Below the pieces are notes generated by a model. It was not told where the DNA came from and did no database searches. It saw only the letters and a program-made list of their open reading frames with translations. The translations under genes were made by a program, and so were the position numbers. A stretch of DNA of 64,000 nucleotides from an uncultured Candidatus Saccharibacteria bacterium (GTDB lineage: Bacteria; Patescibacteriota; CPR2; UBA1875; CAIMLA01): positions 192,393 through 256,392 of the forward strand of contig CAZCRI010000001.1 of assembly GCA_964501135.1 (NCBI GenBank). Direction: 5' to 3'. Positions 13,554 through 55,311 of the stretch are shown here, piece by piece (the first letter of the stretch is position 1; each line of letters starts with the position of its first letter).

Positions 13554-13559
13554 GGCTTT

Positions 13560-34364: not shown

Positions 34365-34398
34365 GCAAAGTATTACAATTTATCTATAACTTGCGAGG

Positions 34399-37300: not shown

Positions 37301-40300
37301 ATACCTACACTGACGTGTGGGTAAACAACGGAATGGGTGTATATTCAATGGAGGATCCGATTCCTAGTTATAGGCCCCAATTAACACTAACAGCAAGTAC
37401 TCCAAGTACAACTACCTTTGACACACCAGAAACATTTACCTCTCGTATTCTCTATAGCGGTGCCACAAGTCCAGACTATAGTGCATTTACCACTAGTCAG
37501 ACAAATAACGGACAAACCATTTCATATCAGATGCGCTCGGGTAATAATGCCACTACTATCGATGGTTCGTGGGGCAGTTGGTACTCGGTAACGCCTGGTA
37601 GCTCTATAAATGCAAATCTTAGTGGCACGAACAGGGGTTATTTCCAGTACAAGGCAACTCTATCCACATCTAATCCGGCAGTTACACCAACTATCAGCAG
37701 TGTAACTGTGGCTGGTGCATATACGCCTCCTTCTGAAGGTACGGTGTATTCGGCGAATATCACTCTTGATCTTATTGGTCCGGCAACTTTTGATGTTTCT
37801 CTGCCAGCCGACAATACTTGGAGTGGCTCCAATAAGCCGACCCTAACCTGGACGGCCTCCCAGGATAATCCAGGGTCGGGACTGTATAAATATGAACTCT
37901 ACATGGATGGGGTACTTAAGAAAACCATTGATGACACTACCGTGGGGGCAACGGCAAACATCCTTAGCGCTACTCCTGGGAGTGACGTGTCATATACCTT
38001 ACAAACTGGCGAGGAATTATCGGAAAAGATGCATACTTGGTATGTGAAAGCATATGACAAGGCACTAAATACCGCCGATTCTACCAGGGGAGTCAGCAAC
38101 CCTTTCCATATTGGTTATGATAGCTCGCTTCCGAATACCGTGCCAACTACAGATATCTCGGCTCAGGCGTCTGGGTGGTTTACCACGAGCCCGCAAATCA
38201 CTCTTACGGCTACAGATCCAGGCGCAGGTGATGGTTCTGGTATCTCCGAGATTAAATATCGTTGGGATAATAGCGATCTGTCAACCGGTGCCACTACTTA
38301 TGCTTCGGCGATAAACATGTCGGCCACTATTGGAGACGGCACGCACGTTTTATATTTCCGCTCCAAGGATACTGCAGGAAACTATGAATCAGTAAAACAG
38401 CAGACCTACAAACTCGATACTATTAACCCAAACACAGATTATTCTATAAGTAACACTCCGCCGAACGGTGACAATGACTGGTACGTAGGAACTGCGCCTA
38501 CTATTTCGCTTACCCCGCATGATGAAGGAAGTGCGAACGCTTCGGGTGTGGCCACTACAAAATATCAGTGGGTCAACCATGGTGCTCAGCCAGGGGCAAC
38601 ATGGCTTACTGGCACTAGCTTTGCCGCATCGCTTGGGGATAAGACACTTTACTACTACTCTACAGACGTAGCTGGGAATGATGGTGCACAGTATGAGCAA
38701 CAACACGTAAAATTTGACAATGTGAGCCCTATTTCTCCGACTGGCTTTGATGCTCCCACAGATAGAGCGTATACGGATTCGATCTACCTCAAATGGAACG
38801 GCGTTACTGACACTTCAGGTGTCCAGACCTATCAGTTGAGAAGAAAAAAAGATAGCGATACCTGGAGCGGTTTGTCCGTTGTTGATTTGGGAGCTGTCGG
38901 GAATATAACCACCTATACAGATGCTAATGGTCTAGAAGCTGGCTATAAATATACTTATCAAATAAAAACCCAGGATAATGCAGGCAATTGGAGCGACGGC
39001 TGGTCGAGTGGTAACCCAGACCAGGTAGTTGGCTATACTATCGATACCGTAACGCCGACAGTCCCTAGTGGCGTCGTCGCGGCAGCTTGTGATGGATCCG
39101 GGGCTACGCTTGCGATCCCAGATACTGACCCGGCAGTGACCACGCCAATATGTACTAGTATTAGCAATAAGGGCTATGAAATCACGTTATCTTGGAAGCA
39201 AGCGGGTGATACGGGTGTGGGCCTTGGCGGATACAAGATCTACCGTTCGGCTGACGGCGATACTGCCGATGAGACCAAGTGGGTGATGGTAGGTGTGCTT
39301 CCTTGGACTGGCGCCGAGGTACTCAAGTGGAATGATAACAATACAAACAACTTAGCAACCTGGGACATTGGAACGTACCCAAGTACGCATCAGAAATCCG
39401 GACAACAGGCAGGGAAGACGGATCCTTCAGATCCATTGAGCGACTCTACCACTTACTACTATCGAGTCACCGCCTACGACGCTGTTAATAACGAGAGCGC
39501 ACTGTTCCCACCAATTTTCCCAGATCCAGACATGAACAGGACGGCTGCTGTGACCCCAGACGTTACCGCGCCTGGCTGGTTTGATGTACAGGGAAACCGA
39601 ATCAGTGACGCTGGCGTTTCTGCTGTGGCACTCGGCCTTGATGGTAGTAACCTCGATGACGAAAACATTGGTCATCAGCGAATAGTAGTAAGCTGGAACA
39701 CTGCTATCGACAAAAAACACAACGGGGATGTTCTCGAAGGTTCGGTACCTAGCTACGAACTATACCGCTCAGCGACTAGCTACCAAACTGACGGTGAGTG
39801 GCTTGCGAGTGCTACCAAACTTACACTGAGCCCAACTACGGCCGTGACCTACGAGGACAACGGGCTCGCTGACTCGACAGTTTACTATTATCGAGTGCTT
39901 ACCTATGACGTGAGCGCCAACAAATCAGACCTCTCCAGTCGGGAGGGGAGTGACCACGCCACTACCTATGATTCTAATATCCCATCAGCTCCGAGTGAGG
40001 TCCGTGTGTCGACGGCAAAGGGAGATCCTAACGTCGCAGACTCCCAAGTGGGAAACACGATAAACATTAGCTTTAAGGGAAGTAACTCCAAATATCGTGA
40101 AATTGTGAAGTACGAGGTTTATCGTTATGAAGCGGATACTAATAATCTTAGTAACAGCCAGTGGCTTGATAGTACGCAGACCACGAAACTCAAGATTTCC
40201 CACTCAGATAGTTGTGGTAGCAAGTGCGAGACCTATACGGCTGGGTCCTCAGGCGGCGACATCGAGATTACGGCGAATCAGGATGACCGCGATAATGAGT

Positions 40301-42621
40301 ACCGGATCCTAGATACGGGGCTTTCCGACGCTCATACCTACTTTTATCGAGTGAGAGCTCAGGACAACGCCTATGTTCCAAACGAACCAGAGCAAAGCTA
40401 TCGTTTCGGGCCACTTTCAAACATTTCTCCGCTGGATTCGAACGAAGCGGCTAGATTCGGTTGGGACACGACTCCTGACGCCACTGCTCCAGACATCAGT
40501 GCGAGCGACCTTGCTCTTTCCGTAAAAGACACACACCCTAGTGACACTTGGCTCCGTAACGTTGTCACTTGGAGAGTGGCAGACAAGACAAAAATCATTC
40601 GCCGGAAACAACTTGGCTCAGGATGCACGACCGTACTCACCGTTGGTAGCACGGAGTATTGCACAGATTTTGCTAGATATGAAATTCATCGTGAGGTTTA
40701 CGATCAAACCGATGTTCTTATCCCTGAGATGAATGAGACCTTTACATTTACCGATATTAATACCAATATTTTGGTGGATTCCGTTGCGGTGGCATATAAA
40801 TCTGACAAATTTAAGTATTATATGGTAATAGTCGATAATGCAGACACAGAATATAGGTACGCAAACGGTACGGTGATTAATAAGAGTGGGTCTACAACGA
40901 ATGTTCCAAATATGACCAGTAAAATATATTGGAATGGTTCTATTACTCCTGAGAAGTCCCATGCCGTGATTGACAGTGTTGCTCTAAGTGGTGTTGGGGT
41001 ATCAAGCGCCACGGTTACCTGGCATACTGATCAAAGTACGGACTCGTTGGTTGAATATAGGCCAATGAAAAAAGTTTCGGGCAATTGGGTCGTAGATGAT
41101 AGCTCGAGTAACCAGTTTGTAGCAGTAGGCCATAGGGAGACTGATGTAAACCATTCGGTATATATTTTTGGGATGAAACCGGAAACTAGATACGAATATC
41201 GGGTAATCTCGAAGAACTATCCATTTGCCAACGAAACGGTGGTTTCTACTGGTTTACCAGAGCTAGTGACGAAGGGATTTATCATTACCTATATTCCTTC
41301 GCCAGAGAATGTTTCTACTGTATCGGCTGACATTCGTTGGACGACTAATATGCCTTCGAATTCGAATATGGTAGAGTATCGCGAAAGTAATGGTAGCCAG
41401 AATGGCGCCATGGCAGAGACTCCTCTCAAGTCCGAAGAGATTACGAATGAGATGAAGGATTGTGTAGCAAATCCGGCCTCGCCGCTCTGTACGCACTCTG
41501 TAACGTTGTCACCTTTGAAGAAAAATACTGAATATACAATAAATATTGTCTCGATTTCGCTTGATAATTATACTTCAACTTCTGGTTTACAGCGTTTTAC
41601 TACCGCCAATTCTGATTCAAAACAATTTACAATTGCTCCATCTGCTTCTAATGTTGCTGAACGAAACATCACCTCTACATCAGCCCAGATTGTCTTCCAG
41701 ACTTCAGAGGCAACGACAGCGACTCTGTATTATGACACAGACAGTGGTGCACCAAACTATGATCCAAAAGACTACAAACAGACCGCTACAGATGCAATGA
41801 AGGGAACTACTCATGCAATTCTGCTAGATGGTCTAGAGCCGGGGAAGAAATACTTCTACGTTGTTAAAGTAGATAATGGTCTCTTGTCTTACACCTCTCC
41901 AGAGGCCTCATTTACCGCCGTCCTTAAACCGAAGATTTCGAACCTAAAGATTTCTGATGTGAAGCCATACTCCTTTAGTATCACCTGGGATACCAATATT
42001 GATACCGAGACCCTGATAAACCTAGGTACAAGTGCTAACTACACCGAAAAGCGCGGCAAATCTGGCCTTACCAAGGTTCACGAACTCTTAGTTGACGGCC
42101 TACAGGATAATACTGAGTACCACTACCAAATTCTAGCCAAGGATGAGACGGGTGAAGAGGTAGCTAGTGGTGATTCAGCAGTCCGTACGCCACTTGATAC
42201 CGAAGGCCCTAAGATTACTGGAGTGAAGGTGGATATCTTGCCAATGGGAGAGAGTGACGCCACTTCTTCAATCATTGTTTCATGGCAGACTAACAAACCG
42301 GCCTCAACACTGGTAGAATATGACCAGGGTATCATTGGCGGTACCTATAATAGTCGCTCGGTAGAAGATAGCACTTTGAATAATTCCCACACTGTAATTA
42401 TCAAAGGTCTCGCACCAGCCTCCTCTTATCGCTATCGTCTGATATCGAAGGATAAACGGCAGAATACCACTATTTCACAGGACTACACCTTCGTAACGCC
42501 GACAAAAGAAAAATCCATCCTACAGCTCATCTTAAAGTCACTCGAGGAAACCTTCGCTTGGACGAAGAACCTCAATCAATTCTTTGGTAATGTTGGTAAA
42601 AGATTAACAGGTGGGAAGTAA
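34399..42621 (+). CDS. Giant cell-surface protein 2 (2740 aa), a paralog of giant protein 1 with a divergent central region
   Basis: Shared N-terminal block (ELTYKFHLKVRSVHDTLVI...PVRNATVSAF...LQYVLPLFNPF) and shared C-terminal Fn3 array ending ...TPTKEKSILQLILKSLEETFAWTKNLNQFFGNVGKRLTGGK. Gly-rich region and Ig-like repeats. Confidence 0.8.
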   Translation: MMKPKKAQLNSVWKRATKLLSKSSNFRLRKSFFTQIPLRSLSFVWSLFKHIISFLAKNVILVLINFIDYLVKLLQILRYELTYKFHLKVRSVHDTLVIRVPVYKKVTEHQLAVPVRNATVSAFFCSLAIFLSLQYVLPLFNPFAPQGAHAGSNSATWTTDSDFNNNTITTNTPTTKNTTNFAGTVLATTGSTSVVGTGTSFADYLDPFNTPKAINIDDVSYGVASVTDNTHLTLTANYQGTTGSGKTFTFDNVVVNDDAISLRKYGLPVTKTSTFTVPSGVTKIYIDMKGGGGGGGSTVYSGGNCGQAGGAGGYSALKIDNGLEYWAFGGGGGGGGCPNFVGATGSPGTYNHRNVPTLIPVDGGANNGGIGGYYASTSRGGNGGAGGRITGTLAVTGGQVVTITNGAAGVGATGPSGWPKVNGANGSAGSVEVLYYIPAFAGNGNITGFKIDAGAGLKYKWSSLSWVTDALPSNTSVRFKYRTSDDGSSWSDSTWSQTGTAQITGSSGGASLTSLSASRYLELQLLLYSVDGVYSPKLNEFIVQYDTLEAPLNENLSLTDISNNSLRTTTGMITDVPIETTSIPAGHSRYGTPNTWTNQATVRLKANNLTCGSGVTACTVTSTNLRPEVEIKPIVNGVPTAFTGSGVTADEGKTYVDISGLATNSAYHIQVRAVDGQARASAWVSYGNNGESEPDVTVEQTSPTLQLNGFADQAGSDILEKGGVLYTRSNQVKMKIGTSDNGGIRSNLAKVMITNNLDDTGWQDVTNQITNYQTQYLGQSSFTGLVPWTLEGTDGVKTVTVKTVDNAGNVSGQSIVTSTELSTTDSTFVVSPAGNAGGAVVVDNKLQLSSTTSGGVGSSTTSVYPTNDETTYWDEWCGGWSLDENPMGTNSGYDNDCGSWGQDAHITFNNGLVSGLTNASIRITSNGDALTWVWHDTTGTSNSVNLTTNTPNSLDITAMVQADIANGDTYTDVWVNNGMGVYSMEDPIPSYRPQLTLTASTPSTTTFDTPETFTSRILYSGATSPDYSAFTTSQTNNGQTISYQMRSGNNATTIDGSWGSWYSVTPGSSINANLSGTNRGYFQYKATLSTSNPAVTPTISSVTVAGAYTPPSEGTVYSANITLDLIGPATFDVSLPADNTWSGSNKPTLTWTASQDNPGSGLYKYELYMDGVLKKTIDDTTVGATANILSATPGSDVSYTLQTGEELSEKMHTWYVKAYDKALNTADSTRGVSNPFHIGYDSSLPNTVPTTDISAQASGWFTTSPQITLTATDPGAGDGSGISEIKYRWDNSDLSTGATTYASAINMSATIGDGTHVLYFRSKDTAGNYESVKQQTYKLDTINPNTDYSISNTPPNGDNDWYVGTAPTISLTPHDEGSANASGVATTKYQWVNHGAQPGATWLTGTSFAASLGDKTLYYYSTDVAGNDGAQYEQQHVKFDNVSPISPTGFDAPTDRAYTDSIYLKWNGVTDTSGVQTYQLRRKKDSDTWSGLSVVDLGAVGNITTYTDANGLEAGYKYTYQIKTQDNAGNWSDGWSSGNPDQVVGYTIDTVTPTVPSGVVAAACDGSGATLAIPDTDPAVTTPICTSISNKGYEITLSWKQAGDTGVGLGGYKIYRSADGDTADETKWVMVGVLPWTGAEVLKWNDNNTNNLATWDIGTYPSTHQKSGQQAGKTDPSDPLSDSTTYYYRVTAYDAVNNESALFPPIFPDPDMNRTAAVTPDVTAPGWFDVQGNRISDAGVSAVALGLDGSNLDDENIGHQRIVVSWNTAIDKKHNGDVLEGSVPSYELYRSATSYQTDGEWLASATKLTLSPTTAVTYEDNGLADSTVYYYRVLTYDVSANKSDLSSREGSDHATTYDSNIPSAPSEVRVSTAKGDPNVADSQVGNTINISFKGSNSKYREIVKYEVYRYEADTNNLSNSQWLDSTQTTKLKISHSDSCGSKCETYTAGSSGGDIEITANQDDRDNEYRILDTGLSDAHTYFYRVRAQDNAYVPNEPEQSYRFGPLSNISPLDSNEAARFGWDTTPDATAPDISASDLALSVKDTHPSDTWLRNVVTWRVADKTKIIRRKQLGSGCTTVLTVGSTEYCTDFARYEIHREVYDQTDVLIPEMNETFTFTDINTNILVDSVAVAYKSDKFKYYMVIVDNADTEYRYANGTVINKSGSTTNVPNMTSKIYWNGSITPEKSHAVIDSVALSGVGVSSATVTWHTDQSTDSLVEYRPMKKVSGNWVVDDSSSNQFVAVGHRETDVNHSVYIFGMKPETRYEYRVISKNYPFANETVVSTGLPELVTKGFIITYIPSPENVSTVSADIRWTTNMPSNSNMVEYRESNGSQNGAMAETPLKSEEITNEMKDCVANPASPLCTHSVTLSPLKKNTEYTINIVSISLDNYTSTSGLQRFTTANSDSKQFTIAPSASNVAERNITSTSAQIVFQTSEATTATLYYDTDSGAPNYDPKDYKQTATDAMKGTTHAILLDGLEPGKKYFYVVKVDNGLLSYTSPEASFTAVLKPKISNLKISDVKPYSFSITWDTNIDTETLINLGTSANYTEKRGKSGLTKVHELLVDGLQDNTEYHYQILAKDETGEEVASGDSAVRTPLDTEGPKITGVKVDILPMGESDATSSIIVSWQTNKPASTLVEYDQGIIGGTYNSRSVEDSTLNNSHTVIIKGLAPASSYRYRLISKDKRQNTTISQDYTFVTPTKEKSILQLILKSLEETFAWTKNLNQFFGNVGKRLTGGK

Positions 42622-42623
42622 TT

Positions 42624-43055
42624 ATGCAGCTCGATTCTAGTAACATACAGCCACAAAATATCGAAACCCCTGTAGTGAGTGGGGAAAATAATGTAGATCG
42701 ACCCCTAGGGACACAGGTAACCCCAGAGATAGCTGCCGAAGCAATACCGGCCACACCGGCGCCAGTAAATCCGGCTGCGGCCGCAGCTCCTATGGACGAT
42801 GCAGCCATATTGGCGAGTGATGACATTAACCCGAGTGACGACACTGCTGCTATTCCTCCAGTTGCCGAGCCTCAGGAGTTTGATGACACGGTGGAACTTA
42901 AGGGGGATGAACAGTATATCTCGGCGATCAAGAAAGTGATTCAAGAAGAGGCCGAAGAGCCTTTTCGAGAAGAAATGGATTCCGAAAAATTGCAAAAAGG
43001 TTATTTGAAGGAACGTTTTGGGGTCGATGTTGATATCGAGGAGGAGGCGAAGTAA
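42624..43055 (+). CDS. Hypothetical acidic low-complexity protein (143 aa)
   Basis: Starts 3 nt after giant gene 2. Pro/Ala/Glu/Asp-rich. No TM. Confidence 0.45.
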   Translation: MQLDSSNIQPQNIETPVVSGENNVDRPLGTQVTPEIAAEAIPATPAPVNPAAAAAPMDDAAILASDDINPSDDTAAIPPVAEPQEFDDTVELKGDEQYISAIKKVIQEEAEEPFREEMDSEKLQKGYLKERFGVDVDIEEEAK

Positions 43056-43057
43056 CT

Positions 43058-45520
43058 TTGGGAGTAGCTATACAATTTCTGTTATTTGTAATAGTTGGCG
43101 GTTTGGCCTTGTGGGGGGTATTTTTTATGGTGAAACATACCACTTACTGGAAGAAACAGATGGAGCGCTCACTCAAGATGGTTCCTCTCCTTTTGACCAT
43201 TCCTAGAGATTCTGGGTCCAAGGATTACGAAGCTAAAAATCGTGATGATCGTGATATGATGCGCGAGGTTATTTCGGTGGCAGAGACTTTTTACTCCAAT
43301 ATGACAGTGCTCTATAATAAGTATAAGTTTGTAAAAAACCTGATTGTTGGGCCACCTCACCTTGCGGCAGAAATTGTTGCTAAGGACAAGGAAATATTTT
43401 TCTATCTTGCAGTACCCTATGCTTTTCTCGAAATGACCGAAAAGGCGCTTTCCGCACAATATCCCGAGTGTAATCTAGAGCGTGCCGAGGAGCACAATAT
43501 TTTTAGTGAAAAGTGGGGGATAGAGAACATCGCTGGCGGTGAGATAAGGGCTAGTAACTCATATTTCTTCCCTTTTAAATCATATGCAGAGCTTGACTCG
43601 GAGCCTCTGGAGAATATTACAAATGCTTTTGCCAAGATGCATCCCGAGGAAGGCGCTGCGTTGCAAATCCTTTTCCGTCCCGCAAAGCCCAGTAAGGCGA
43701 AGAAGGTTAATCATGTCGCTAAAGAGATGCATCATGGGAAGAGCCGAGATCTCTTTAGTGCGCTATGGCGAATAATTGATGCCATGAATGCCAAGGGGGA
43801 TCAGGCTGAGGCCAATCGCCTGACGCCGATGGAAGAAGATGCGGTGAAGGCGGTGGAGAAAAAGGCTGCAAAGCCACTTTTCGATACGATGATACGCATC
43901 GTTGCCTCTACCGACAGTAAGCAGCGTTCAGAAATGTTTGCCAAGGAGATTGCGAGCACTTTCGTTCAGTTTAATGATCAGAACTTAAATTCCTTCCAAT
44001 ACGTACCGGCTCGCGATACAGAAGAACTAGTTACGGATTATATTTTCCGTTTCTTCGCCCACAAGATATTCAGCATGAATCGTCTTTTTCGTTTACACCG
44101 TGGGCACGAAATCGTCTTAAATACGGAGGAGCTCGCTTCGGTTTTTCATTTACCAAACTATTTGGTCAAGACCCCAGGAATTCGTTGGTTACCATCAAAG
44201 AAAGCGGCGCCTCCTACCTTTATCTCTGAAAACGGAGTTGTTATTGGACACAGTCAGTACCGAGGGGATGACAATATTATCCGAATCGACGAAAACGATC
44301 GACGAAGACATCTCTATATCCTGGGTCAAACTGGTACCGGTAAGTCGACCAGTATGATTAACATGATTATCTCGGACATCCGCGAAGGTAAGGGGGTTTG
44401 CTACATAGACCCACACGGCCAGGATTTGGAAGAGCACGTTTTACCATATATTCCCAAGGAGAGAGCCGAGGACGTGATTATCTTTAATGCCTCGGACACA
44501 GAGCGTCCGATAGGCCTTAATCTCTTTACGGCCAAAACCCAGGAAGAGAAAGACTTCGTAATCCAAGAGGCGATTGCGATGCTTTATCGACTTTACGACC
44601 CAGGTCACACCGGTATCATGGGGCCGCGTTTTGAGCACTGGTTCCGTAATGCAGCGCTTACTCTAATGGCAGGGCCAATACCAGGAACCTTTATCGAGGT
44701 ACCAAGAATATTTACCGATGACAAGTTCCTGGCCGAAAAGCTGCAGTACGTAACAGATCCTGTAGTTCGTAATTTCTGGATTAACGAAATGGGACAGACT
44801 AGCGATTATCATAAAAGCGAAATGCTTGGATGGTTTGTCGGCAAGTTTGGCGCTTTCATGACTAACATGACGATGCGAAATATCTTGGGGCAGCCAGAAT
44901 CGGCAATCGACATTCGCAAGATTATGGATGAGGGTAAAATCTTGCTCGTTAATCTTGCCAAGGGTCAGACCGGTGAGATGAATATGCAGCTTCTCGGCAT
45001 GATGCTGGTGGCAAAGATTCAAATGGCAGCAATGAGCAGAGTAGATATGCCGGAAAATGAACGGCGTGACTTTTACCTTTACGTGGATGAGTTCCAGAAT
45101 TTTGCTACCGATTCGTTTGCTTCAATTCTTTCCGAAGCTCGCAAATTCCGTCTGAACCTTATTGTGGCGAATCAGTTTATTGGCCAGCTCAAAGATGAGA
45201 TTCGCGACGCCGTCTTTGGTAATGTTGGTAGCCTGATGTGTTTTCGTGTCGGCAATGACGACGCCGAGTACATGGCAAAGCAGTTTGTGCCTCTTTTTAA
45301 TCAACAGGACCTCATCAATATTGAAAACTATAACAGTATTGCAAAGATTCTGGTGGATGCGAAACCGTCTCGACCTTTCAGTCTAGAAGGATACAATTAC
45401 CCACCTAACAAAAGTGTTGAGATTGGGGAAGCGATAGAGCAATTGTCTCGTTTGAAGTACGGTAGACCGCGTGATATAGTAGATGCAGAAATACAAGAAA
45501 GAATGAGTATAAAACTTTGA
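43058..45520 (+). CDS. FtsK/HerA-superfamily type IV secretion / conjugation ATPase (VirD4/TraG coupling-protein-like or VirB4-like)
   Basis: N-terminal TM. Walker A HLYILGQTGTGKST followed by CYIDPHGQ (compare TrwB HLLVNGATGTGKS...VIVDPNGD). Walker B FYLYVDEFQNF. ARKFRLNLIVANQFIGQL matches the RK...Q motif of T4SS ATPases. 820 aa. Confidence 0.65.
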   Translation: MGVAIQFLLFVIVGGLALWGVFFMVKHTTYWKKQMERSLKMVPLLLTIPRDSGSKDYEAKNRDDRDMMREVISVAETFYSNMTVLYNKYKFVKNLIVGPPHLAAEIVAKDKEIFFYLAVPYAFLEMTEKALSAQYPECNLERAEEHNIFSEKWGIENIAGGEIRASNSYFFPFKSYAELDSEPLENITNAFAKMHPEEGAALQILFRPAKPSKAKKVNHVAKEMHHGKSRDLFSALWRIIDAMNAKGDQAEANRLTPMEEDAVKAVEKKAAKPLFDTMIRIVASTDSKQRSEMFAKEIASTFVQFNDQNLNSFQYVPARDTEELVTDYIFRFFAHKIFSMNRLFRLHRGHEIVLNTEELASVFHLPNYLVKTPGIRWLPSKKAAPPTFISENGVVIGHSQYRGDDNIIRIDENDRRRHLYILGQTGTGKSTSMINMIISDIREGKGVCYIDPHGQDLEEHVLPYIPKERAEDVIIFNASDTERPIGLNLFTAKTQEEKDFVIQEAIAMLYRLYDPGHTGIMGPRFEHWFRNAALTLMAGPIPGTFIEVPRIFTDDKFLAEKLQYVTDPVVRNFWINEMGQTSDYHKSEMLGWFVGKFGAFMTNMTMRNILGQPESAIDIRKIMDEGKILLVNLAKGQTGEMNMQLLGMMLVAKIQMAAMSRVDMPENERRDFYLYVDEFQNFATDSFASILSEARKFRLNLIVANQFIGQLKDEIRDAVFGNVGSLMCFRVGNDDAEYMAKQFVPLFNQQDLINIENYNSIAKILVDAKPSRPFSLEGYNYPPNKSVEIGEAIEQLSRLKYGRPRDIVDAEIQERMSIKL

Positions 45521-47547
45521 AAAAAATAGATGACACAAGAGAAAAAGCAAAGGTTAAACAAGCTAGAGAGTGTTATTTAGAATTGGCCAAAGTTTACGCT
45601 GCAAAACTTTCTGCTGCCGCAAAGCTTGACCCCAAAGTACTCTCAATAGCTCACGATATCGCAAATATTGGCGTCAACCTCGCTGCCATTGATTCGAAGG
45701 CAGTAACCGATTTTTATTCCAAACTATTAGCAACCTCAAGAATCGACAAGAGATACCACGACGTAGTAATAGAGACCAAGAAGGCTAAAAATGCGCTCGA
45801 TATAGCATCGCATAAGCTTTTCAATGCTCAGGTGGACCTAGCGCTCGCGACTAGCGGACTGCCCAAAAAGAAGCATAATCTAGGAGTCGCCAAAACTGCC
45901 GACTACATAAACGATAAGAAGACTACTCTGATCGAGAAAATTGCCTACGCCTCCTCCTATATCCAGGACGAAATCCTTGCACTTTCAGCAATGGCATCTC
46001 GAGGTGAAGTGGTGATTGATAACGGAAATATTGAAGGTACTTCCAAACCAGCAAGGGCATATTTAAAAAATTTGGGGAAACTCATTGTTGAACGAGTTAA
46101 TGATCATTATTTTGGTCCGAAATCACTTGACATCAAGCGAATATATATTGATTCAAATAATTCAGGGATGGGACCGTTGCAGCTAATAACTCATCTAGGT
46201 GATGCAGAGCACCGCAGAGAGCTAGAGAGACGAATTGCTGACGGCGATGTAGTGATGCGTCTTGGGGAGATCGAGCCCATTACTACAAAAGGTGAAAAAT
46301 ACTTGCAGCTCCTCTCCGAGGAATTGACAGCAATACTTGATAAGAACCTCGAAGAGCAGCTTCTAAATTCTAGCCAAGAAGCCCTAAGGGGGGATGACTT
46401 ACTCAATACAATATTTGGGGTAGTGGATCAGTTCGAGGACAGACTTGCGAAACACTTACAAATTACCGCAAGGTATGATTTTGAGGGTGACTATTCGGGC
46501 GCAGTCGAAAATTACAGAGAGAACATTTCCCGGTTTGTGAGTGATAAGAAGCAAATACAGGAAGACATTGACCATATTTCTCGAGCAGCTCTATCGATCC
46601 GAAAGAAGCTTATAATTCTCGCTGGGCATGATGAGGTCTTGGTGGAAGATTCTTTGCCGGTCCTTACGGCTCTAAATTTACTATCTAAATACGAGCAACA
46701 ACTAGACCAGAGAATCGCAGCTTTGGCGGCACGGGCTAGCCTTCGCTTACCAAATACCCACCACGCCGCTGCTAGTCTTTCTGACATTTTAGAAACCTAT
46801 AGTAGTAAAGACGATGCGGATTCACTAGCTGTTTTAGAGTCTGAGATTTCGAGTATTCTTTCGTCTCGTGTAAACACTAGTGATGATCTTGAGGCAACGA
46901 TTCGTTGGGTTCTGGGTCATTCGGAGAACATCCAGGCATACCTTTCAGCTGCCAACGAACTCGATTCTCTTAGGGCATATCTTTCTAGCTATGTAGGTCG
47001 TGAAGACCGTCTATATAGAGGGAATGAAATTGTTGAGACCGTGCTCTCGGAAATTGTTGAGAAGGAAATTGAACGCCGTGAGTTACTCTCAGAGATTATT
47101 CATGAAGTGCAACTTTGTCACAAGAAGTTGTGGCTTGCAAATATTCGAAGTGGAAACAATGAATATCTGGACAGAAATTATTCAGGGAAGAAATTACCAC
47201 TTAAGCAAGCCCGGGATATAAATATTCAAATTATCAAAGAAATCGAGGGCGAAATTTCGGCGATGATTCAGTCTTATCGAGAGCGTCATGACGCACACGC
47301 GAAGGAGTTTCTTACCACACTAAAGCAACTTTCAGCCAAGGTCGCAAGTGGTCAGGACGTCTCAGTAATCGGTGCAGAATTACGACGTGAATACCGTGAA
47401 ATGGAGCAAGCACATCGTGAGGACTTATCTCGCTTGGAGCTAGAAATGAAGCGACTTGATAGGCAGCTTATAATGCTCCCAGAAAAGTCACGAAAAGCAA
47501 TCGAAAAAAGCCTAATTTCAGACATCAAAAAAAGGGTAATTTCGTAG
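45517..47547 (+). CDS. Hypothetical alpha-helical / coiled-coil protein (676 aa)
   Basis: Start overlaps the ATPase stop (ATGA). No TM. No recognisable domain. Confidence 0.5.
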   Translation: MKKIDDTREKAKVKQARECYLELAKVYAAKLSAAAKLDPKVLSIAHDIANIGVNLAAIDSKAVTDFYSKLLATSRIDKRYHDVVIETKKAKNALDIASHKLFNAQVDLALATSGLPKKKHNLGVAKTADYINDKKTTLIEKIAYASSYIQDEILALSAMASRGEVVIDNGNIEGTSKPARAYLKNLGKLIVERVNDHYFGPKSLDIKRIYIDSNNSGMGPLQLITHLGDAEHRRELERRIADGDVVMRLGEIEPITTKGEKYLQLLSEELTAILDKNLEEQLLNSSQEALRGDDLLNTIFGVVDQFEDRLAKHLQITARYDFEGDYSGAVENYRENISRFVSDKKQIQEDIDHISRAALSIRKKLIILAGHDEVLVEDSLPVLTALNLLSKYEQQLDQRIAALAARASLRLPNTHHAAASLSDILETYSSKDDADSLAVLESEISSILSSRVNTSDDLEATIRWVLGHSENIQAYLSAANELDSLRAYLSSYVGREDRLYRGNEIVETVLSEIVEKEIERRELLSEIIHEVQLCHKKLWLANIRSGNNEYLDRNYSGKKLPLKQARDINIQIIKEIEGEISAMIQSYRERHDAHAKEFLTTLKQLSAKVASGQDVSVIGAELRREYREMEQAHREDLSRLELEMKRLDRQLIMLPEKSRKAIEKSLISDIKKRVIS

Positions 47548-47698
47548 CGCTTTTTGCTTGTATTTGTGCTTAAAGTAAACTAAAATATTAGTATAGAAAC
47601 TCACTGTTTCTGGTCTTTAAATAAATCAGTTTTTGGGTAGCTAGTACTGGAAGTATTTCTAGTGCATTTTATTGAGTATTTCAAAGAAAAGGGAGCAT

Positions 47699-49771
47699 AT
47701 GGTTGATAAATCCAAAGGCACTTATGACGCCTCCTCGATCCAGGTCCTAGAGGGCCTACAGGCCGTCCGCAAACGTCCGGGTATGTATATCGGTGGTACC
47801 GGTAAAGAGGGTCTACATCATCTTATCTGGGAAATTGTTGACAATGCTATCGACGAAGCGATGGCCGGGTTTGCTGACACCATTGGTGTCATAATCCATG
47901 CCGACGGAAGTGTCTCTGTCGCCGACAATGGTCGTGGTATCCCGATCGATAAACAGAAGCAGACGGGCAAGAGTGCTCTAGAAACAGTGATGACTATTCT
48001 CCACGCCGGTGGTAAATTTGGCGGCGGCGGATATAAAGTTTCTGGTGGACTCCATGGTGTGGGTGTCTCGGTTGTGAATGCCCTTTCTACTCATGTCCGG
48101 GCAGAGGTTCGTAAAGACGGTAAGATTTGGGTTCAGGAATACAGGGATGGTGGTGTTCCGGTTGGGCCACTAAAGAGTGTTGGAGAAACCAAGGAAGACG
48201 GTACGACAATCACCTTCACTCCAGATGCTAGTATCTTTGACACCACTGAATTTGACTACAACGTGGTTTTGGACCGTATTCGACAGCAGGCTTACCTTAC
48301 TAAGGGCGTAAAGATTAAGCTCACCGATGAGCGTGTCGATAAAAGCTACGGGTTCTACTTCGAGGGCGGTATTAAATCGTATGTAGACCATTTGAATCGT
48401 AGTAAGAATTCGGTAAATGAACCGATATTTTATGTCGATAAATCGGCAGATAACGTTAATGTAGAGCTTGCAGTTCAGTATACGGACGGCTATACCGATA
48501 ATGTCCAAACTTTTGCCAATAACATTCATACACCAGAGGGTGGTACACACCTTACTGGTTTTAGAACTTCACTTACTCGTACGCTCAACGATTACGCTCG
48601 TAAAAATAGCTTACTCAAAGACAACGAAGGTAATCTCACGGGGGATGATGTTCGCGAAGGTCTTACGGCAGTAATCTCGGTAAAGCTCGCTGACCCACAA
48701 TTCGAAGGCCAGACAAAGGCCAAGCTTGGTAACCCAGAGATTGCAAACATTGTGCAGACTATTTTTACTGAATATTTCTCATACTATTTAGACGAGAATC
48801 CAACCGAAGCAAAGAAAATCATCAATAAATGCTCCCTCTCTGCTCGTGCTCGTATGGCCGCTCGGGCCGCACGCGACACCGTGATTCGAAAGGGCGTACT
48901 AGAAGGGATGACACTTCCTGGTAAGCTCGCTGACTGTTCTAGTAAGAATGCCGAGATTTCAGAAATCTATATTGTAGAGGGAGATTCGGCTGGTGGCTCT
49001 GCAAAGCAGGGACGCGATCGCCGCTTCCAGGCAATTTTGCCTCTTCGCGGAAAAATTCTTAACGTTGAGCGAGCGCGTATGGATCGTATGCTTGCTTCTG
49101 ACGAGGTGAAGAATCTTATCATCGCTCTCGGTACTGGTATTGGCGAGCAGTACGACCCGGGCAAATTACGATATCATCGCATCATCATAATGACTGACGC
49201 GGACGTTGACGGTGCACACATTCGGGCATTGCTACTCACTCTTTTCTATCGTCACTTCCCTGAGCTTATTCTAAACGGTAACGTTTATATTGCTCAGCCA
49301 CCACTATATAAGATCCAGAAGGGCAAAACCAAATTATATGCACACGATGATGCCGAGAAGGAAGAAATTCTCGCTGAGATGGCGCAAACCATGAAGGATA
49401 AAGCGCAGAAAACCGAGGATGGACTCTTCGCAATCACCGAGGTTGGCGCTGAGGGTGAGGTTCTAGAAGGCGAGAATGAAGAACCAGAGGAAAATAATGA
49501 TCTTTCGGAATCACACAGTGACGACGGAGTAGATTCTGATCTTAAGATTCCTGGGGTTTCAATCCAGCGCTACAAGGGTCTCGGTGAGATGAACCCAGAG
49601 CAACTCTGGGAGACCACTATGGATCCAGAAAATCGCGTTCTTTTGCAGGTCACTGCAGATGACGCCGAAAAAGCCGATGAAATATTTACTATCCTTATGG
49701 GTGACGAAGTAGAACCTCGTAAAAGATTTATCCAGACTCACGCTACAAACGTGAAAAATCTGGATATCTAG
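47699..49771 (+). CDS. gyrB: DNA gyrase subunit B
   Basis: GHKL ATPase motifs ([32 protein letters not shown]), the Toprim EGDSAGGS and [10 protein letters not shown] motifs, and an acidic insertion before the C-terminus. AAAAGGGAG RBS. Confidence 0.95.
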
Positions 49772-49783
49772 GAAGGCGAAAAG

Positions 49784-52375
49784 ATGGCAGGAGAAAGCCA
49801 GAGTCCTATCAGATTTGAAGAAATTAAGTTCAAAGACAGCCCGAAGAAGACAGGCAGTAAATCTGTGCCAACCTCTTCGAATACTACAACTTCTCGTATG
49901 CCATATACTTCCGCGACAGTCCATGAAGGCACTGGTACGGGTGGAGGTTCAGGAAGTGTCACAGAGACATCAGGTGGAGGTAAACGGGATGGAGACAAGC
50001 CAGAGGAAGAACAGGCACCGGTAATTCCAACTCCAACCAATGAAGAATTAGGACTTTTGGCAGAAGATAGATATGTAGATAATGAAGGCCGCATGGCTTA
50101 CGATGTCGAAACAGCTCGTAAATACGCAGATCGAGTTGCCGAAAGAGCAAACTCGTACTACGAACAGAGAGCGCAGGGCAGTAGTGATGAAGTTCATGGA
50201 TTTGCAGACCAGGTTGCCGCTAGAGCCGCAGAAATTGCTTCTGCTCGTGTTAGTGAAGAAGACCAGACCGATGAGGGTAAAACCATATCTAGTGCTGCTG
50301 AATTCCAAGAGGCTTCTAGGCAAATTAGTCGTGAAGCTTGGAAAATATTCAAGTCGAAAGCCAAGGAGCGCAAAGGCGAGAAGAAACCTAGCCTAGAAGA
50401 TTACGAAGCCGCCAGGGCTAGCTATTTTGCAGCTACTGAGAATCAGGAAAAAAGCTTGGATATCACAGCGGCCGATTATATGGAAGCCGATACTGAGCTT
50501 GGAGACGAATTCGATGCTTTAAACCAGCCAGAAAACCTAAACCTAGATGGAGGCCCTACCACTGCCGATTATGCCCGTGCTGAAGCGGAGCTTAGGCCAT
50601 TATTCGAGTCGGAGGCGAGAGCAAATGCTGAAAATCACGCTGAAACCCTAAAGGCAGCAAAACGTGCGGGCATCGAATATCGTGACGCAGATATGCTTAG
50701 TGATGCCGAATCCATAGACCACGGTAAAATGCGCGTGGAGAATGCCTTGCCAGTGGAGGAAATGTTAAGACGGGTTGGAATCAGTGAGGCTAGTATTCCT
50801 GGTATTGTTGAACAGATAGAAAAGGGAACACTTAGTGCTGATTTTTACGATAAAATGCCAGAGACGATCCCCATTCCCCCCGAGAATGCCTTGCTTGCTG
50901 AGCTAGACCGTCGAAATGCCCTCAGGACAGTCGATGAGAATGACGAAAACTCTGAAGACCGTTGGTCCGAAGAGATTATTCGTCTTCATGGTATTGCTTT
51001 ACAGAGAATTGAAGACTCTGGGCTGGGGCAGACATTAAACGCAAAGATAGTGGCCGAAAGAGAAGCCGGCGCAAAGAGAAAACGTGCAGAAGCTCTAAAA
51101 ACAGACTGGCAAACTACCGAGGAGCTTTTGCTTGAGACCCTAGCAGATGCAAGGGATGTTTTAGGGGAATTGCAGAGGACCCAGAATAGCAGTACAGAAA
51201 GAGCGGAGCTAGAATCTAAACTCTTAGGACTCGCGGCCTTGCTTAAATCCAGGGAAACGGAAGTCAAAAAGGCAAGAGCTAACGTAGCAAGCTATCTTGG
51301 TGTCGAACCTGGAGCTTCCCAATCTCCAAGCGCTGAAGTCGAGAGTAGGATTTCCACAGAGATTGATAGGGCTATTGCTGGGCGTCATTATGATGCCGTA
51401 TTACGCAGCCTCGGTGAGGCTTCTCTAACTCAGGAGACCTTAGACTTCTTTGAACAAGCCGGCGTCTCGGGGCAGGTAGAGGCAGCATTTAAGCGCATGC
51501 AAGGCAAGAACTTGTTAGCGCGTTTAGGTGAAGCTGTTCAGACGCTTGGCCCTGTAGGAGGTGAAGGCAACGAATACGATATCAATCAGTTAGTCAGTGA
51601 TCCAGATTTGTTACGTAATTTTGCCAAAAGTGAAGCCGGTAAAGAAATCCTGGAATCCCTAGTGAAGAATATGAGGGAATATGAACGCTCCGCAATGAAA
51701 TTAAATAGGGTTGGAGCAGGAGACATTGGCAACCTAGACGGAAACCAGCTGGCTGATCTTATTTATCAGAGGCAAGCATCTAGACTAGACCTAGTTTCTA
51801 ATACTCATCGACTTGCTATAGAAGTACGTCGTGGCGGTGCGCGAAGGTCTTGGGCGGTCGCAGGCCAAGAGATTGTCAGGCAGCTAAAAACTCAGGTCGC
51901 AGCGCGATTCGTAGGTTCTGACGTAGACGGCAGGGGTATGGACGATGAAGCTCGAGTAAGTTACGACACAAGTATTGGTGAGATTGTTGAGAACGGTAGT
52001 AATCGTCGTGCATTAGCCCTTCAATCTCTGCGGGTTGCTGGTTCATATCTAGGAGGTGCAGTAATCCCTGGAGTAATAGTCGGCAGAGACATCTTGCGTC
52101 ATTTTGGGATAGAGCTCGATCGCTCTCTACTGGATGAAAATCGAGCTATGAACGCAGAACATACTGTCATTGGGCTAGAAGAAGGCAGAGACAGTGAGAG
52201 ATTTAGAAACGTTGAAGCCAGAGCCGAGCGCCAGAAGCAATACGAAAACATTGGTTTGATCCGCAGTAAAATAAGGGCGAGGGCTGACAAAGAGTATGCA
52301 GATTGGTCGGACACCCATTACCAAACTATACGGGATCTAGATATGAGGCCGGAGGATAATGATGGAGCTGAATAA
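49784..52375 (+). CDS. Hypothetical highly acidic helical protein (863 aa) located between gyrB and gyrA
   Basis: Long ORF with coding-like composition. No TM. Low-complexity acidic N-terminus (GTGTGGGSGS...). No recognisable domain. Confidence 0.5.
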   Translation: MAGESQSPIRFEEIKFKDSPKKTGSKSVPTSSNTTTSRMPYTSATVHEGTGTGGGSGSVTETSGGGKRDGDKPEEEQAPVIPTPTNEELGLLAEDRYVDNEGRMAYDVETARKYADRVAERANSYYEQRAQGSSDEVHGFADQVAARAAEIASARVSEEDQTDEGKTISSAAEFQEASRQISREAWKIFKSKAKERKGEKKPSLEDYEAARASYFAATENQEKSLDITAADYMEADTELGDEFDALNQPENLNLDGGPTTADYARAEAELRPLFESEARANAENHAETLKAAKRAGIEYRDADMLSDAESIDHGKMRVENALPVEEMLRRVGISEASIPGIVEQIEKGTLSADFYDKMPETIPIPPENALLAELDRRNALRTVDENDENSEDRWSEEIIRLHGIALQRIEDSGLGQTLNAKIVAEREAGAKRKRAEALKTDWQTTEELLLETLADARDVLGELQRTQNSSTERAELESKLLGLAALLKSRETEVKKARANVASYLGVEPGASQSPSAEVESRISTEIDRAIAGRHYDAVLRSLGEASLTQETLDFFEQAGVSGQVEAAFKRMQGKNLLARLGEAVQTLGPVGGEGNEYDINQLVSDPDLLRNFAKSEAGKEILESLVKNMREYERSAMKLNRVGAGDIGNLDGNQLADLIYQRQASRLDLVSNTHRLAIEVRRGGARRSWAVAGQEIVRQLKTQVAARFVGSDVDGRGMDDEARVSYDTSIGEIVENGSNRRALALQSLRVAGSYLGGAVIPGVIVGRDILRHFGIELDRSLLDENRAMNAEHTVIGLEEGRDSERFRNVEARAERQKQYENIGLIRSKIRARADKEYADWSDTHYQTIRDLDMRPEDNDGAE

Positions 52376-52796
52376 GAACGATATTGACGAAATACAGAGG
52401 GTTATCGGAACCTTAAATTTAAATGAGGCGCAGCAAGAAGAGTTGAATGACTTGTTACGTGAGAAGGACTATCTGGGTGCTATTGATAAGATTGATTTTT
52501 ACCTCCAGTTAGAGATTCGCAACCTAGACACGCTTGAGAGGTTTAGGGTAGAGGCGGCGGATAAGGTTCCAAGGGATATCGAAGACGGTAATGCGGTCGT
52601 TCAGAATGTCCAGAAAGCAGCCAAGCTAGCAAATTACTATCTTGAAAATGCGTTGCAACAAGAAGAAGAGGCCGAAGACCAGGCAATTGTTCTGGCGACA
52701 GAGCAGGTGGCGGCTGACTACCTCAAGTTACGAGAAAAGATATTCAGAGATGCGGATGAGGCTGAAATTGAAAAAGTTAAAGATAAGTTAAGATAG
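52359..52796 (+). CDS. Hypothetical acidic coiled-coil protein (145 aa)
   Basis: Overlaps the upstream gene by 17 nt. Followed by the gyrA RBS. Confidence 0.45.
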   Translation: MMELNKNDIDEIQRVIGTLNLNEAQQEELNDLLREKDYLGAIDKIDFYLQLEIRNLDTLERFRVEAADKVPRDIEDGNAVVQNVQKAAKLANYYLENALQQEEEAEDQAIVLATEQVAADYLKLREKIFRDADEAEIEKVKDKLR

Positions 52797-52803
52797 GTGA
52801 GTT

Positions 52804-55311
52804 ATGGCAAAAGAGAAGAAACTGTTAGACGAAAAAATGTTTGGTGAAGAGATCGGTTACGTTCGTGAGCGAGATCTTCGGACTGAAATGCAAGAGAGCT
52901 TTCTCGACTATGCAATGTCGGTTATTGTATCCCGCGCACTACCTGATGTCCGCGATGGCCTAAAGCCGGTACATCGTCGTATTTTATATGCAATGAATGC
53001 CCTGGGCATTCGCTCCAATACTAAATATCGTAAGTCTGCGATGGTCGTCGGTGAAGTGCTCGGTAAATATCATCCTCACGGCGATACTGCGGTTTACGAC
53101 TCTATGGTCCGTATGGCCCAGTACTGGTCAATGCGTTATCCGATGATTGACGGTCAAGGTAACTTTGGCTCGATGGACGGAGACGGTGCTGCCGCGATGC
53201 GTTATACCGAGGCTCGTATGGCAAAGATGGCAGATGAAATGCTCGCCGACATCGATAAAGACACTGTGGACTTTATGCCAAACTATGATGGTAGTCAGAA
53301 GGAGCCAGCGGTTCTTCCTGCTAAGCTTCCGTTACTACTACTCAACGGTCAGCTCGGTATTGCTGTGGGTATGGCAACTAACATCCCGCCGCACAACCTA
53401 GGAGAGTTGGTTGACGGTATTACCACCCTTATCGACAAGCCAGAATCTACGGTCGAGGATCTAATGGAGTTTATCAAAGGCCCTGACTTTCCTACTGGTG
53501 CTCAAATTTATGACCCCGAAGTAATTAAGCAGGCGTATGCTACGGGTCGTGGCTCGATTATTATGCGTGCGGTTGCAGAAATCGAGGAAGATAAACGTGG
53601 CCAGCAGCGCATTGTAGTTGCTGAAATTCCATATCAGGTAAATAAGGCCACTCTTATTACTCGTATCGCAGAGCTAGTAAAAGAGAAAACCATTGTCGGA
53701 ATCTCTGACATTCGTGATGAATCTGACCGCAAGAACCAGGTTCGTATTGTGATAGAGCTCAAAAAGGAAGCCTTTGCGAGTAAGATATTGAATCAGCTTT
53801 ACAAGCTCACGCAAATGCAAAGCAACTTTGGCGTCAATATGATTGCCCTTGTTGATGGTATTCAGCCACGAATTATGACACTCAAGTCTATCCTAGAGGA
53901 GTTTATCAAGCACCGCCAAGTAGTGGTTACGCGGCGGACCCAGTTTGAACTCAAGAAGGCCAAGGATAGAGCTCACATCCTAGAAGGATTACTGAAGGCC
54001 CTCGATAATATCGACGAAGTTATCGCTACAATCAAGAAATCAGCGACTCAAGACGAGGCAAGACAGAACCTGATCAAGAAGTTTGGTTTATCCGAAGTCC
54101 AGGCGAATGCAATTCTTTCTATGCAGTTACGCACCCTCGCTGGGCTTGAGCGTAAGAAGATCGAAGACGAATTTGCTGAGCTCATGAAACTTATTGCTTA
54201 CCTCGAGGATCTGCTTGCACACCCAGAGAAAGTCCTCGGTGTTATCAAGGGTGAACTTCTGGAAATCAAAGAGAAGTATGCAGATGAACGCCGCACCAAA
54301 CTTGTTGGTCACGCTCTAGGGAAGTTTAACGAAATTGATCTGATTCCAAATGAAGATGTGATCGTCACAATGACCGAAGGTGGCTACATCAAGCGTATCC
54401 TCAGCTCTACCTATCGAGCACAGGGCCGTGGTGGCAAGGGAATCTCTGGCACCAGCCTCAAGGAAGAGGACGTCGTAGAGCATCTTCTGCACGCAAGTAA
54501 TCATGACACAATTCTTTTCTTTACCAATCAGGGTAGGGTATTCGCCAATAAGGTCTACGAGCTTCCAATGGCATCGCGTATTGCCAAGGGTTCCCCAGTG
54601 ATTAATGTTGTCCAGCTAGCTCCAGAGGAGAAGGTAACGGCAATCTTGACTCTTGCGAAATTCGAAGGTGAAGGCAATCTCTTTATGGCCACGAAGCTTG
54701 GTACTGTAAAGAAGACGCCACTTTCAAACTTTGCAAACATACGTAAGACCGGCATTATCGCCATCGGTCTGGACAAGGGCGATGAGCTCAAGTGGGTCGA
54801 GGCTACCAGTGGTAGTGATGACGTGATTATGTCCACCAAGCAATCGATGGTGATGAGATTCAACGAAAAAGACGTCCGCCCAATGGGACGTAATGCTCGT
54901 GGCGTGCGTGGAATCCGACTAAAGAAGGACGATGAAGTAGTCGGAATGGACATTGTCGTTGAGAAGAGTGAGCTGATGGTAATCATGGAAAATGGTTATG
55001 GTAAGCGTACTGCGATAGAGCAATTCACCCCTCATCATCGTGGTGGCGTCGGCATCAAGGGCGGCGTTGTGACCGCAAAGACCGGAAGCTGTGTTGATGT
55101 TCGGGTAATTACCTCTACCGAGGATGATTTAATGATCATTAGTAACGGGGGACAGATTATCCGTGTTCCACTCTCAAGTGTTTCCAAGATCGGACGTGCT
55201 ACCCAGGGAGTTCGAATCATGAAGCTTCCAGATGGCGAAACAGTTTGTTCCGTAGCTCTGGTACATGAACCAGAAGAAGAAAACGAACAACTCACTATAG
55301 CAACCGAATAA
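52804..55311 (+). CDS. gyrA: DNA gyrase subunit A
   Basis: [28 protein letters not shown], the active-site Tyr region, the QRD-like region [17 protein letters not shown], and a C-terminal beta-pinwheel. 835 aa. Confidence 0.95.

Follow-up and report, generated by a model that had tools for sequence, protein, structure and literature searches.

A small acidic protein and a VirB4/VirD4-family ATPase: two genes that make up a widespread module of Patescibacterial chromosomes

The closest described relatives of the ATPase considered here are the type IV coupling proteins (T4CPs), i.e., TrwB of R388, VirD4, TraD, DotL/IcmO and Cag-beta, and the VirB4 ATPases, such as TrwK of R388. Small acidic partners are known for coupling ATPases, as in the case of IcmS/IcmW with DotL and of CagZ with Cag-beta (PDB 6sz9, 8dol). 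The system for type IV secretion (T4SS) of the patescibacterium Southlakia epibionticum is essential, and the cluster encoding it is without recognizable coupling and relaxase proteins (PMC10633639). In the literature the T4CP-like genes of the phylum count as scattered and, judging by a single paralogue, as dispensable (PMC12102498). In this work we have analysed a stretch of 64,000 nucleotides (nt) from contig CAZCRI010000001.1 of an uncultured Candidatus Saccharibacteria bacterium (assembly GCA_964501135.1), hereafter the window, in which a gene for an acidic protein of 143 amino acids (aa) lies directly 5' of a gene for an 820-aa ATPase. These two genes are a widespread chromosomal two-gene module of the Patescibacteria, and this module is not a private motor for the two giant proteins encoded immediately upstream in the window. 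The pair bears on the part that type IV secretion plays in the Patescibacteria, to which much of the diversity of uncultivated bacteria belongs.

The small acidic protein gene (42624-43055, + strand, ATG start) and the ATPase gene (43058-45520, + strand, TTG start) were taken from an open reading frame (ORF) list, and are followed by a gene for a 676-aa protein (45517-47547, + strand, TTG start). All three ORFs lie at the positions given in an earlier note on this DNA. They are real genes and not chance ORFs, since more than 3,400 homologues of the ATPase were found at E<=1e-5 and other genomes contain syntenic homologues of all three. The note had described tight junctions around the ATPase, and while adjacency and overlap hold, the details differ: the spacing between the TAA of the 143-aa gene and the TTG of the ATPase is 2 nt ('ct') and not 3 nt, and the overlap of the ATPase stop with the start of the 676-aa gene is TTGA and not ATGA. 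A Shine-Dalgarno sequence, GGAGGAGG, could be read from the sequence at 43040-43047 (+ strand), 10 nt 5' of the TTG start of the ATPase. A promoter and terminator scan of 41800-47800 returned the same counts as in shuffled sequence.

The ATPase begins with a transmembrane (TM) helix at residues 1-26 (43058-43135, + strand), as the earlier note had recognized; hydropathy is 2.23 over residues 1-19, and the AlphaFold2 (AF2) model has a helix at residues 2-26. A basic stretch follows the helix, and the bulk of the protein would be cytoplasmic. The N-terminal domain (N-domain), at residues 28-392 (43139-44233, + strand), corresponds to Pfam DUF8128 and precedes a P-loop domain with a Walker A motif GQTGTGKS at residues 423-430 (44324-44347, + strand) and the Walker B pair D677-E678 in YLYVDEFQNF (45086-45091, + strand). 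The motifs quoted earlier (HLYILGQTGTGKST...CYIDPHGQ, YLYVDEFQNF and ARKFRLNLIVANQFIGQL) were all found in the sequence. In an alignment of 41 homologues G423, Q424, T425, G426, G428 and K429 of the Walker A motif, both Walker B residues, and R695, K696, N705, Q706 and Q710 are invariant; with K429, D677 and E678 conserved throughout, the protein is predicted to be a catalytically intact P-loop NTPase. Residues 495-624 (44540-44929, + strand) form an all-helical insertion in the P-loop domain, with DSSP assigning helices only between the strands 473-477 and 628-632 of the AF2 model, and this insertion is a candidate counterpart of the T4CP all-alpha domain or of the VirB4 helical bundle.

Sequence models place the P-loop domain nearest to the coupling proteins, which bears out the type IV secretion family call made for the 820-aa protein in the earlier note. 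With Pfam it scored 34.2 bits against TrwB_AAD_bind (cut-off 20.5) and 27.3 bits against DUF87, the HerA central domain (cut-off 23.2), while FtsK_SpoIIIE (PF01580) gave 18.2 bits, under its cut-off of 24. The profiles named beforehand as checks on that call (PF03135, AAA_10 and PF02534) did not match the ATPase at E<=0.1 in the Pfam scan. The top NCBIfam matches are all coupling-protein models (SXT TraD, CD1115 VirD4-like and TrbC), with scores far under the equivalog or subfamily cut-offs (TraD 42.9 versus 366; VirD4 34.2 versus 250), and the VirB4_plasma model gave 17.2 bits versus a cut-off of 590. When the PDB was searched with the ATPase, both as a single sequence and as a profile, only TrwB and DotL rose above noise; TrwK was not retrieved by the sequence profile.

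The fold of the N-domain, by comparison, points to VirB4. The AF2 model of the full-length ATPase has a predicted local distance difference test score (pLDDT) of 84.9 and is composed of the TM helix, an alpha/beta N-domain (~40-360) and the P-loop domain. Foldseek ranked TrwK/VirB4 first for this model, as full-length matches with about 900 aligned columns and E 5e-15; TrwB came next (E 2e-11, TM-score 0.6-0.66 normalised to TrwB), followed by HerA, Cag-beta and DotL. When the N-domain was modelled alone with AF2 (residues 28-392; pLDDT 78, predicted TM-score 0.80), ranks 1 to 14 of the Foldseek search against the PDB were all TrwK/VirB4, with E values from 5e-7 to 1.8e-4, probability 1.00 and TMq 0.40-0.45, and after rank 14 the probability was at most 0.57 with a TM-score of 0.16. 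The suggestion that the long N-domain is VirB4-like is thus borne out at the level of the fold. It should be noted that the assignment to PF26449 (DUF8128) is a precomputed one on homologues, namely P0001 (98% identical) and almost all of the best 120 homologues listed, and that the Pfam scan of the window protein itself did not return PF26449. A profile of the N-domain built from the window protein and its relatives matched 3,528 cluster representatives, in all of which the domain begins ~30-80 residues into the protein.

The ATPase is therefore composed of a VirB4-type N-domain and a coupling-protein-like motor on a single TM anchor, and falls, within the FtsK-HerA superfamily, in the type IV secretion (VirB4/VirD4) branch; in the order TM helix, DUF8128, VirD4/HerA-type P-loop it has the architecture of the DUF8128 family. 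With the T4CPs it shares the best sequence-profile matches of the P-loop domain, an N-terminal membrane anchor and a helical insertion in the nucleotide-binding domain. It differs from them in having one TM helix instead of the usual two and in the 365-aa VirB4-type domain which is placed between this helix and the nucleotide-binding domain, so that the T4CP arrangement of TM segment followed directly by nucleotide-binding domain is not found. Nor is it linked to a relaxase or a T4SS cluster in the window or its flanks, and, unlike the T4CPs, it is chromosomal and widespread, with an apparent orthologue that is essential. With VirB4/TrwK (PDB 7o42, 7o43, 8rtd) it has in common the two-domain fold of N-domain and C-terminal ATPase; the top fold matches of the full-length model are to VirB4, and so are the sole confident ones of the N-domain. 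In contrast to VirB4, it matches no VirB4 sequence model and has no virB3, virB6 or virB8 beside it in a T4SS cluster, and Patescibacteria hold a separate bona fide VirB4 (SEML1_0008 in S. epibionticum ML1).

The second member of the module is the small acidic protein, with a pI of 4.05 and 33 D+E versus 10 K+R. Its N-terminal half is Pro/Ala-rich and of low complexity, as judged from composition only, and its C-terminal module of ~45 aa has the consensus DLIEKEWVDKAKKII..TK.DPY..E..V..LQ..YLKKRYG. This module could be aligned across 26 loci with ATPases of 40-100% identity to that of the window, where it comes after a variable Pro/Ala-rich region (median pI 4.8). A small ORF of 80-215 aa on the same strand directly 5' of the ATPase was present at 65 of 77 loci (13 of the 14 with an ATPase at least 50% identical and 52 of the 63 below 50%), and the single exception at the close loci was produced by the ORF filter. 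In other lineages the same position is taken by different small-ORF families. These observations fit the earlier proposal that the acidic upstream gene is a partner of the ATPase. No relative of the small protein was found in Pfam or the PDB; the best PDB match, YoeB, has an E value of 0.07 and was taken as chance.

Distribution and context were analysed across 96 loci with a callable ATPase ORF (handles beginning with L below), which came from contigs of genomes (15) and of metagenomes (80) and from several contig look-ups; neighbour searches covered the window and flanks of +/-10 kb. Wherever the organism of an ATPase homologue is named it is one of the Patescibacteria or candidate phyla radiation. 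An ATPase of 98% identity is encoded on a contig of 219 kb in the Patescibacteria metagenome-assembled genome (MAG) GCA_041738615.1, and other close relatives are labelled uncultured Candidatus Saccharibacteria. A housekeeping context was found at all loci compared: gyrB lies in the flank at all 15 loci with ATPases of at least 50% identity and at 10 of the 32 loci below 50% (at least 6 kb downstream available), and the neighbours elsewhere include ribonucleotide reductase, IF-3, L20 and YifB, together with XerC-like and FtsB-like genes recognized by reading sequences and not by hidden Markov model (HMM). The window itself is ordinary chromosome, with typA, pyrG, RmuC, pheS/pheT, a YkuD L,D-transpeptidase, gyrB, gyrA and 16S rRNA genes, an even GC content of 0.42-0.50, and no tRNA in a tRNA scan. 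Among about 45 scanned window ORFs there was no VirB4, VirB6, VirB8, pilin, relaxase or integrase, in agreement with the earlier observation that no relaxase, pilin or other T4SS parts are visible. Because the small ORF is kept widely, whereas the giants and the 676-aa gene are limited to a clade (see below), the conserved unit is composed of the small protein and the ATPase. This is a distinct family, widespread in the phylum and set apart by its VirB4-like N-domain, its T4CP-like motor and its dedicated acidic partner.

An apparent counterpart of the pair is found in S. epibionticum, for which the only Patescibacterial transposon sequencing (Tn-seq) dataset that we found is available (Wang et al., 2023, Cell; PMC10633639, Table S1). 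There SEML1_0141 is a hypothetical gene of 420 nt (139 aa) with Tn-seq calls GD/ES/ES and 0 insertions, and SEML1_0142 encodes 1019 aa, is called ES/ES/ES, and is flagged as core and as a member of a Patescibacteria-enriched family. SEML1_0142, which tolerated 11 transposon insertions, is annotated as 'TraM recognition domain-containing' with a P-loop domain at residues 381-800. Next in ML1 come two minus-strand genes (one of 582 nt for 193 aa, the other for a DUF11 protein), gyrB and gyrA, and then PAP2 in divergent orientation and 16S rRNA. The main text of the study does not discuss SEML1_0141/0142. The order in ML1 is the same as that at loci L020 and L104, where a gene of 123-139 aa and the DUF8128 ATPase are followed by a 185-193-aa gene (- strand), a CLIPPER/DUF11 gene (- strand), gyrB, gyrA and DUF212/PAP2. 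These two loci also have upstream blocks in common with the window (RmuC-pheS-pheT-L,D-transpeptidase in L020, pheS-pheT in L104), and the L020 ATPase, P0113, is 47% identical to that of the window over its full length. Since L020 and L104 bridge the two gene orders, the window pair is the positional orthologue of SEML1_0141/0142, and the apparent correspondence to this essential pair is based on synteny and annotation and not on sequence alignment. A homologue search seeded with P0113 returned Saccharimonadia relatives and no protein named as S. epibionticum, and the supplements of PMC12102498 contain no SEML1 identifiers.

The two pairs are alike in the small gene directly 5' of the ATPase and, through L020 and L104, in the surrounding gene order. 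They differ in the length of the ATPase (1019 versus 820 aa), and ML1 is without giants upstream or a 676-aa gene downstream. The added residues in that clade, as seen in P0113 and P0116, form a C-terminal tail rich in Pro/Ala that the window ATPase does not have, and the 11 insertions in SEML1_0142 may fall in such a tail. These Saccharimonadia tails (P0113, P0116; L020 10001-13594) are Pro/Ala/Val-rich, measure about 380-600 aa and end in (K/R)PGEIFVD(E/D)(N/D)GNV(I/V)QG, a motif not present in the 820-aa protein. Between ATPase and gyrB the Saccharimonadia have two divergently transcribed genes, one for a membrane protein of ~190 aa and one for a DUF11/CLIPPER surface protein; in other lineages unrelated genes or none are found there.

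ML1 has a second T4CP-like gene, SEML1_0293 (921 aa), which is called NE/NE/NE and has no small upstream partner (PMC10633639). Its product is of similar size to the window ATPase, with a P-loop domain that starts at ~residue 400 and matches to PF10412, PF12696 and PF01935, and it differs from the module ATPase in being non-essential and without the small partner. The ML1 't4cp homologue' has been described as dispensable (Quinonero-Coronel et al., 2025, PMC12102498). Table S1 lists two T4CP-like genes, the non-essential SEML1_0293 and the essential SEML1_0142, and the dispensable 't4cp homologue' appears to be SEML1_0293. A paralogue of 856-961 aa with 36-37% identity to the window ATPase occurs in tandem at L025 (12445-15015), L027 (12676-15561) and L033 (3276-6143), directly downstream of the primary ATPase match or one gene further, and our guess is that it is of the SEML1_0293 type. 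The ATPase family is already catalogued, as Pfam DUF8128 and under various NCBI names, and presumably as T4CP homologues of the 2025 survey. We found no paper that mentions SEML1_0142 or DUF8128, and in the Patescibacterial T4SS literature we did not find the VirB4-like N-domain, the acidic partner or the essentiality of the apparent orthologue described.

The reading that we put forward, tentatively and as falling just short of probable, is that the module pairs an acidic adaptor with a hexameric ATPase for translocation or coupling, which would serve the Patescibacterial T4SS as its coupling or second ATPase. By analogy with its family the ATPase would assemble as a membrane-associated hexamer and use ATP to recruit a protein or DNA substrate to an envelope channel, or to push it through. 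The small acidic protein would, on the same grounds, use its helical module at the C-terminus to bind the ATPase, with the function of adaptor, chaperone or regulator. Because the essential T4SS cluster of S. epibionticum is without a coupling protein, the module could supply this missing coupling or second ATPase. In the window lineage the module may then have become co-transcribed with the upstream giants and the downstream 676-aa gene, both of them accessory.

Several points weigh against such a T4SS role. The architecture departs both from that of a canonical T4CP, in having a large N-domain, and from that of a canonical VirB4, in giving no PF03135 or AAA_10 match, and the essentiality is carried over from SEML1_0142 through synteny and annotation. 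No T4SS gene is found beside the module at any examined locus, as judged from the conserved neighbour families of the 96 loci. Of the 5,713 T4CP homologues of Patescibacteria in the published survey just 148 are close to virB4, and such homologues are present in 2,918 of 3,035 genomes (96%) versus 2,417 of 3,035 (80%) for VirB4 (PMC12102498). Since T4CP homologues are commoner than VirB4 and almost never linked to virB4, the module could act without a T4SS.

That the same essential two-gene unit is a self-contained membrane ATPase system, independent of the T4SS, we consider possible, if on the doubtful side. It could be involved, for example, in import of host DNA or nucleotides as in archaeal Ced, in export or insertion of envelope proteins, or in envelope or division-linked processes. 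The surplus of T4CP-like genes over VirB4 points in this direction, although MAG incompleteness could account for the difference between 96% and 80%. The same is true of the kept neighbours (gyrBA, pheST and the L,D-transpeptidase, and the XerC-like and FtsB-like genes of other lineages), although the gyrBA linkage at only 10 of 32 distant loci is maybe mere inherited gene order. A weak NCBIfam match to CedD, the Ced DNA-translocating ATPase, is also consistent with this, as is the finding that nucleotide import is obligatory in Patescibacteria and yet comEC is dispensable in S. epibionticum (PMC11665869). On the other hand, no dedicated channel protein is kept beside the module, and a single TM helix cannot form a pore alone. 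A more specific version seems unlikely to us, namely that the pair of small protein and DUF8128 ATPase is an essential T4SS-free translocation machine, an evolutionary intermediate between VirB4 and VirD4, which moves a substrate central to life as an epibiont, for instance nucleic acid from the host or an envelope or effector protein of key importance. Whether as the missing T4SS ATPase or as a separate essential translocation system, SEML1_0141/0142 is a genetically tractable candidate, and in the Tn-seq dataset the synteny-matched pair is essential.

A minimal secretion motor made up of the ATPase and the acidic and 676-aa proteins, and dedicated to export or display of the adjacent giants, had been suggested as a possibility in the earlier note, and this we now regard as improbable. 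The giants are two tandem surface proteins of 3016 and 2740 aa with fn3/Pur_ac_phosph_N repeats (Pfam), encoded at 25254-42621 (+ strand). The operon is tight, with only 2 nt ('tt') between the TAA of the second giant gene and the ATG of the 143-aa gene, and giant genes lie directly upstream at 8 of the 17 loci with an ATPase at least 50% identical (6 of the 10 with at least 9 kb upstream) and at L102. In another clade a DUF11/CLIPPER surface protein is encoded just downstream. The nearly invariant 38-aa C-terminal tail of the giants (KEKSILQLILKSLEETFAWTKNLNQFFGN.GKR.TG.K), which is kept even where the ATPase is only 52% identical, and their conserved N-terminal region would also be in keeping with a dedicated exporter. 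The tandem giants resemble each other in the N-terminal anchor region (49% identity) and in the C-terminal ~1,400 aa (41%), and differ in their middles. Against such a motor, no giant is present at any of the 26 loci with ATPases below 50% identity and at least 9 kb upstream, nor at 4 of the 10 close loci with the same length available. The ATPase family has thousands of members, whereas the last 400 aa of the second giant matched only 30 proteins in a large protein collection; of the three such matches that were looked up, L102 adjoins a DUF8128 ATPase, and L101 and L103 do not.

The giants moreover have their own conserved N-terminal hydrophobic anchor, typical of Sec-inserted proteins; no LPXTG or sortase motif was found at their C-terminus. 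In S. epibionticum, where no giant is annotated at this locus, SEML1_0142 is essential and the neighbouring surface-protein genes SEML1_0143 and 0144 are non-essential (PMC10633639). The giants thus represent an insertion specific to one clade, placed between the module and the L,D-transpeptidase gene, and are not key to the function of the ATPase; as a general function a giant-dedicated motor is largely refuted, and at most a lineage-specific extra role is possible. A likeness between the giants' C-terminal tail (KEKSILQLILKSLEETFAWTKNLNQFFG...) and the small-ORF C-termini of another lineage (...ILQLILEWLKILPGVNRFFLEQE...) was also considered, and discarded as not significant (E=5.1 with the tail HMM among 1,156 ORFs).

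The 676-aa protein likewise does not stand as a partner in the module. Including the window it was found at only five loci, the others being L003, L004, L017 and L005, where it is 83, 41, 33 and 29% identical to the window protein and the ATPase is 98, 82, 70 and 79% identical, respectively. An HMM of the five homologues matched nothing else among 844 neighbouring ORFs, which included the genes of the ATPase-gyrB gap elsewhere. Helix-favouring residues make up 49% of this protein, which is soluble and free of TM segments; it gave no match in Pfam, NCBIfam or PADLOC, and by blastp it is unrelated to the 863-aa ORF located between gyrB and gyrA. This gene is a lineage-specific, fast-evolving accessory outside the conserved module.

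A HerA/FtsK-type DNA helicase or translocase in repair or anti-phage defence (HerA-NurA, SIR2-HerA or MADS-like) is very improbable. The ATPase shares the P-loop superfamily with HerA and FtsK/SpoIIIE, it scores above the DUF87 cut-off, HerA structures are among its fold matches, and PADLOC returned mad8 (57.6 bits) and several HerA models. These matches are limited to the generic P-loop core, and a defence system was discarded on the same PADLOC result. The window ORF scans detected no nuclease, SIR2 or NurA nearby, and the protein carries a TM anchor and a VirB4-type N-domain and not a HAS barrel. Its gene is core and syntenic, with an essential apparent orthologue, and not a patchy island gene. 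With respect to FtsK/SpoIIIE, the motor scores below the FtsK cut-off, the 4TM, alpha and gamma domains are missing, and there is one TM helix. As S. epibionticum separately encodes a canonical, essential FtsK (PMC10633639), replacement of FtsK by the module was also rejected. It is hardly credible that the locus is the remnant of an integrated conjugative element, in spite of the coupling-protein-like sequence and of homologues recorded as 'conjugative DNA transfer family protein', given that the window ORF scans found no relaxase, integrase or transfer gene, that base composition is even, and that the module holds the same chromosomal position across very divergent genomes, with an essential apparent orthologue.

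Downstream of the module gyrB (47672-49771) and gyrA (52804-55311), which together span 47672-55311 on the + strand, served as synteny anchors and enclose two fast-evolving ORFs. The gap at 49784-52796 contains acidic ORFs of 863 and 145 aa without a Pfam match, which are about 25-44% identical to those of the closest relative, as against 96-98% identity for gyrB and gyrA on either side; gyrB adjoins gyrA in L004, L005 and L017. The region looks like a hypervariable insertion within the gyrase operon. A complete bacterial 16S rRNA gene (60830-62288, 1521.7 bits) is found a few kb beyond gyrA, a placement shared with S. epibionticum. It is seemingly not linked to a 23S gene, because a protein-coding ORF, similar to F420-0:gamma-glutamyl ligase (62393-63208), comes directly after it. 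In L010, which is labelled Howlettbacteria, gyrB (10795-14358) encodes 1187 aa, with an insertion of about 420-480 aa, possibly an intein, between the parts matching residues 18-443 and 428-699 of the window gyrB. The tblastn matches of pheT in L006, L007, L015 and L016 are in two segments about 500 nt apart, which suggests that pheT carries an insertion in these lineages. At 13568-15491 the window has a gene for a ferric-reductase-like membrane protein followed by two genes for cytochrome b5-like heme-binding domains, which are unexpected for a genome of reduced type.

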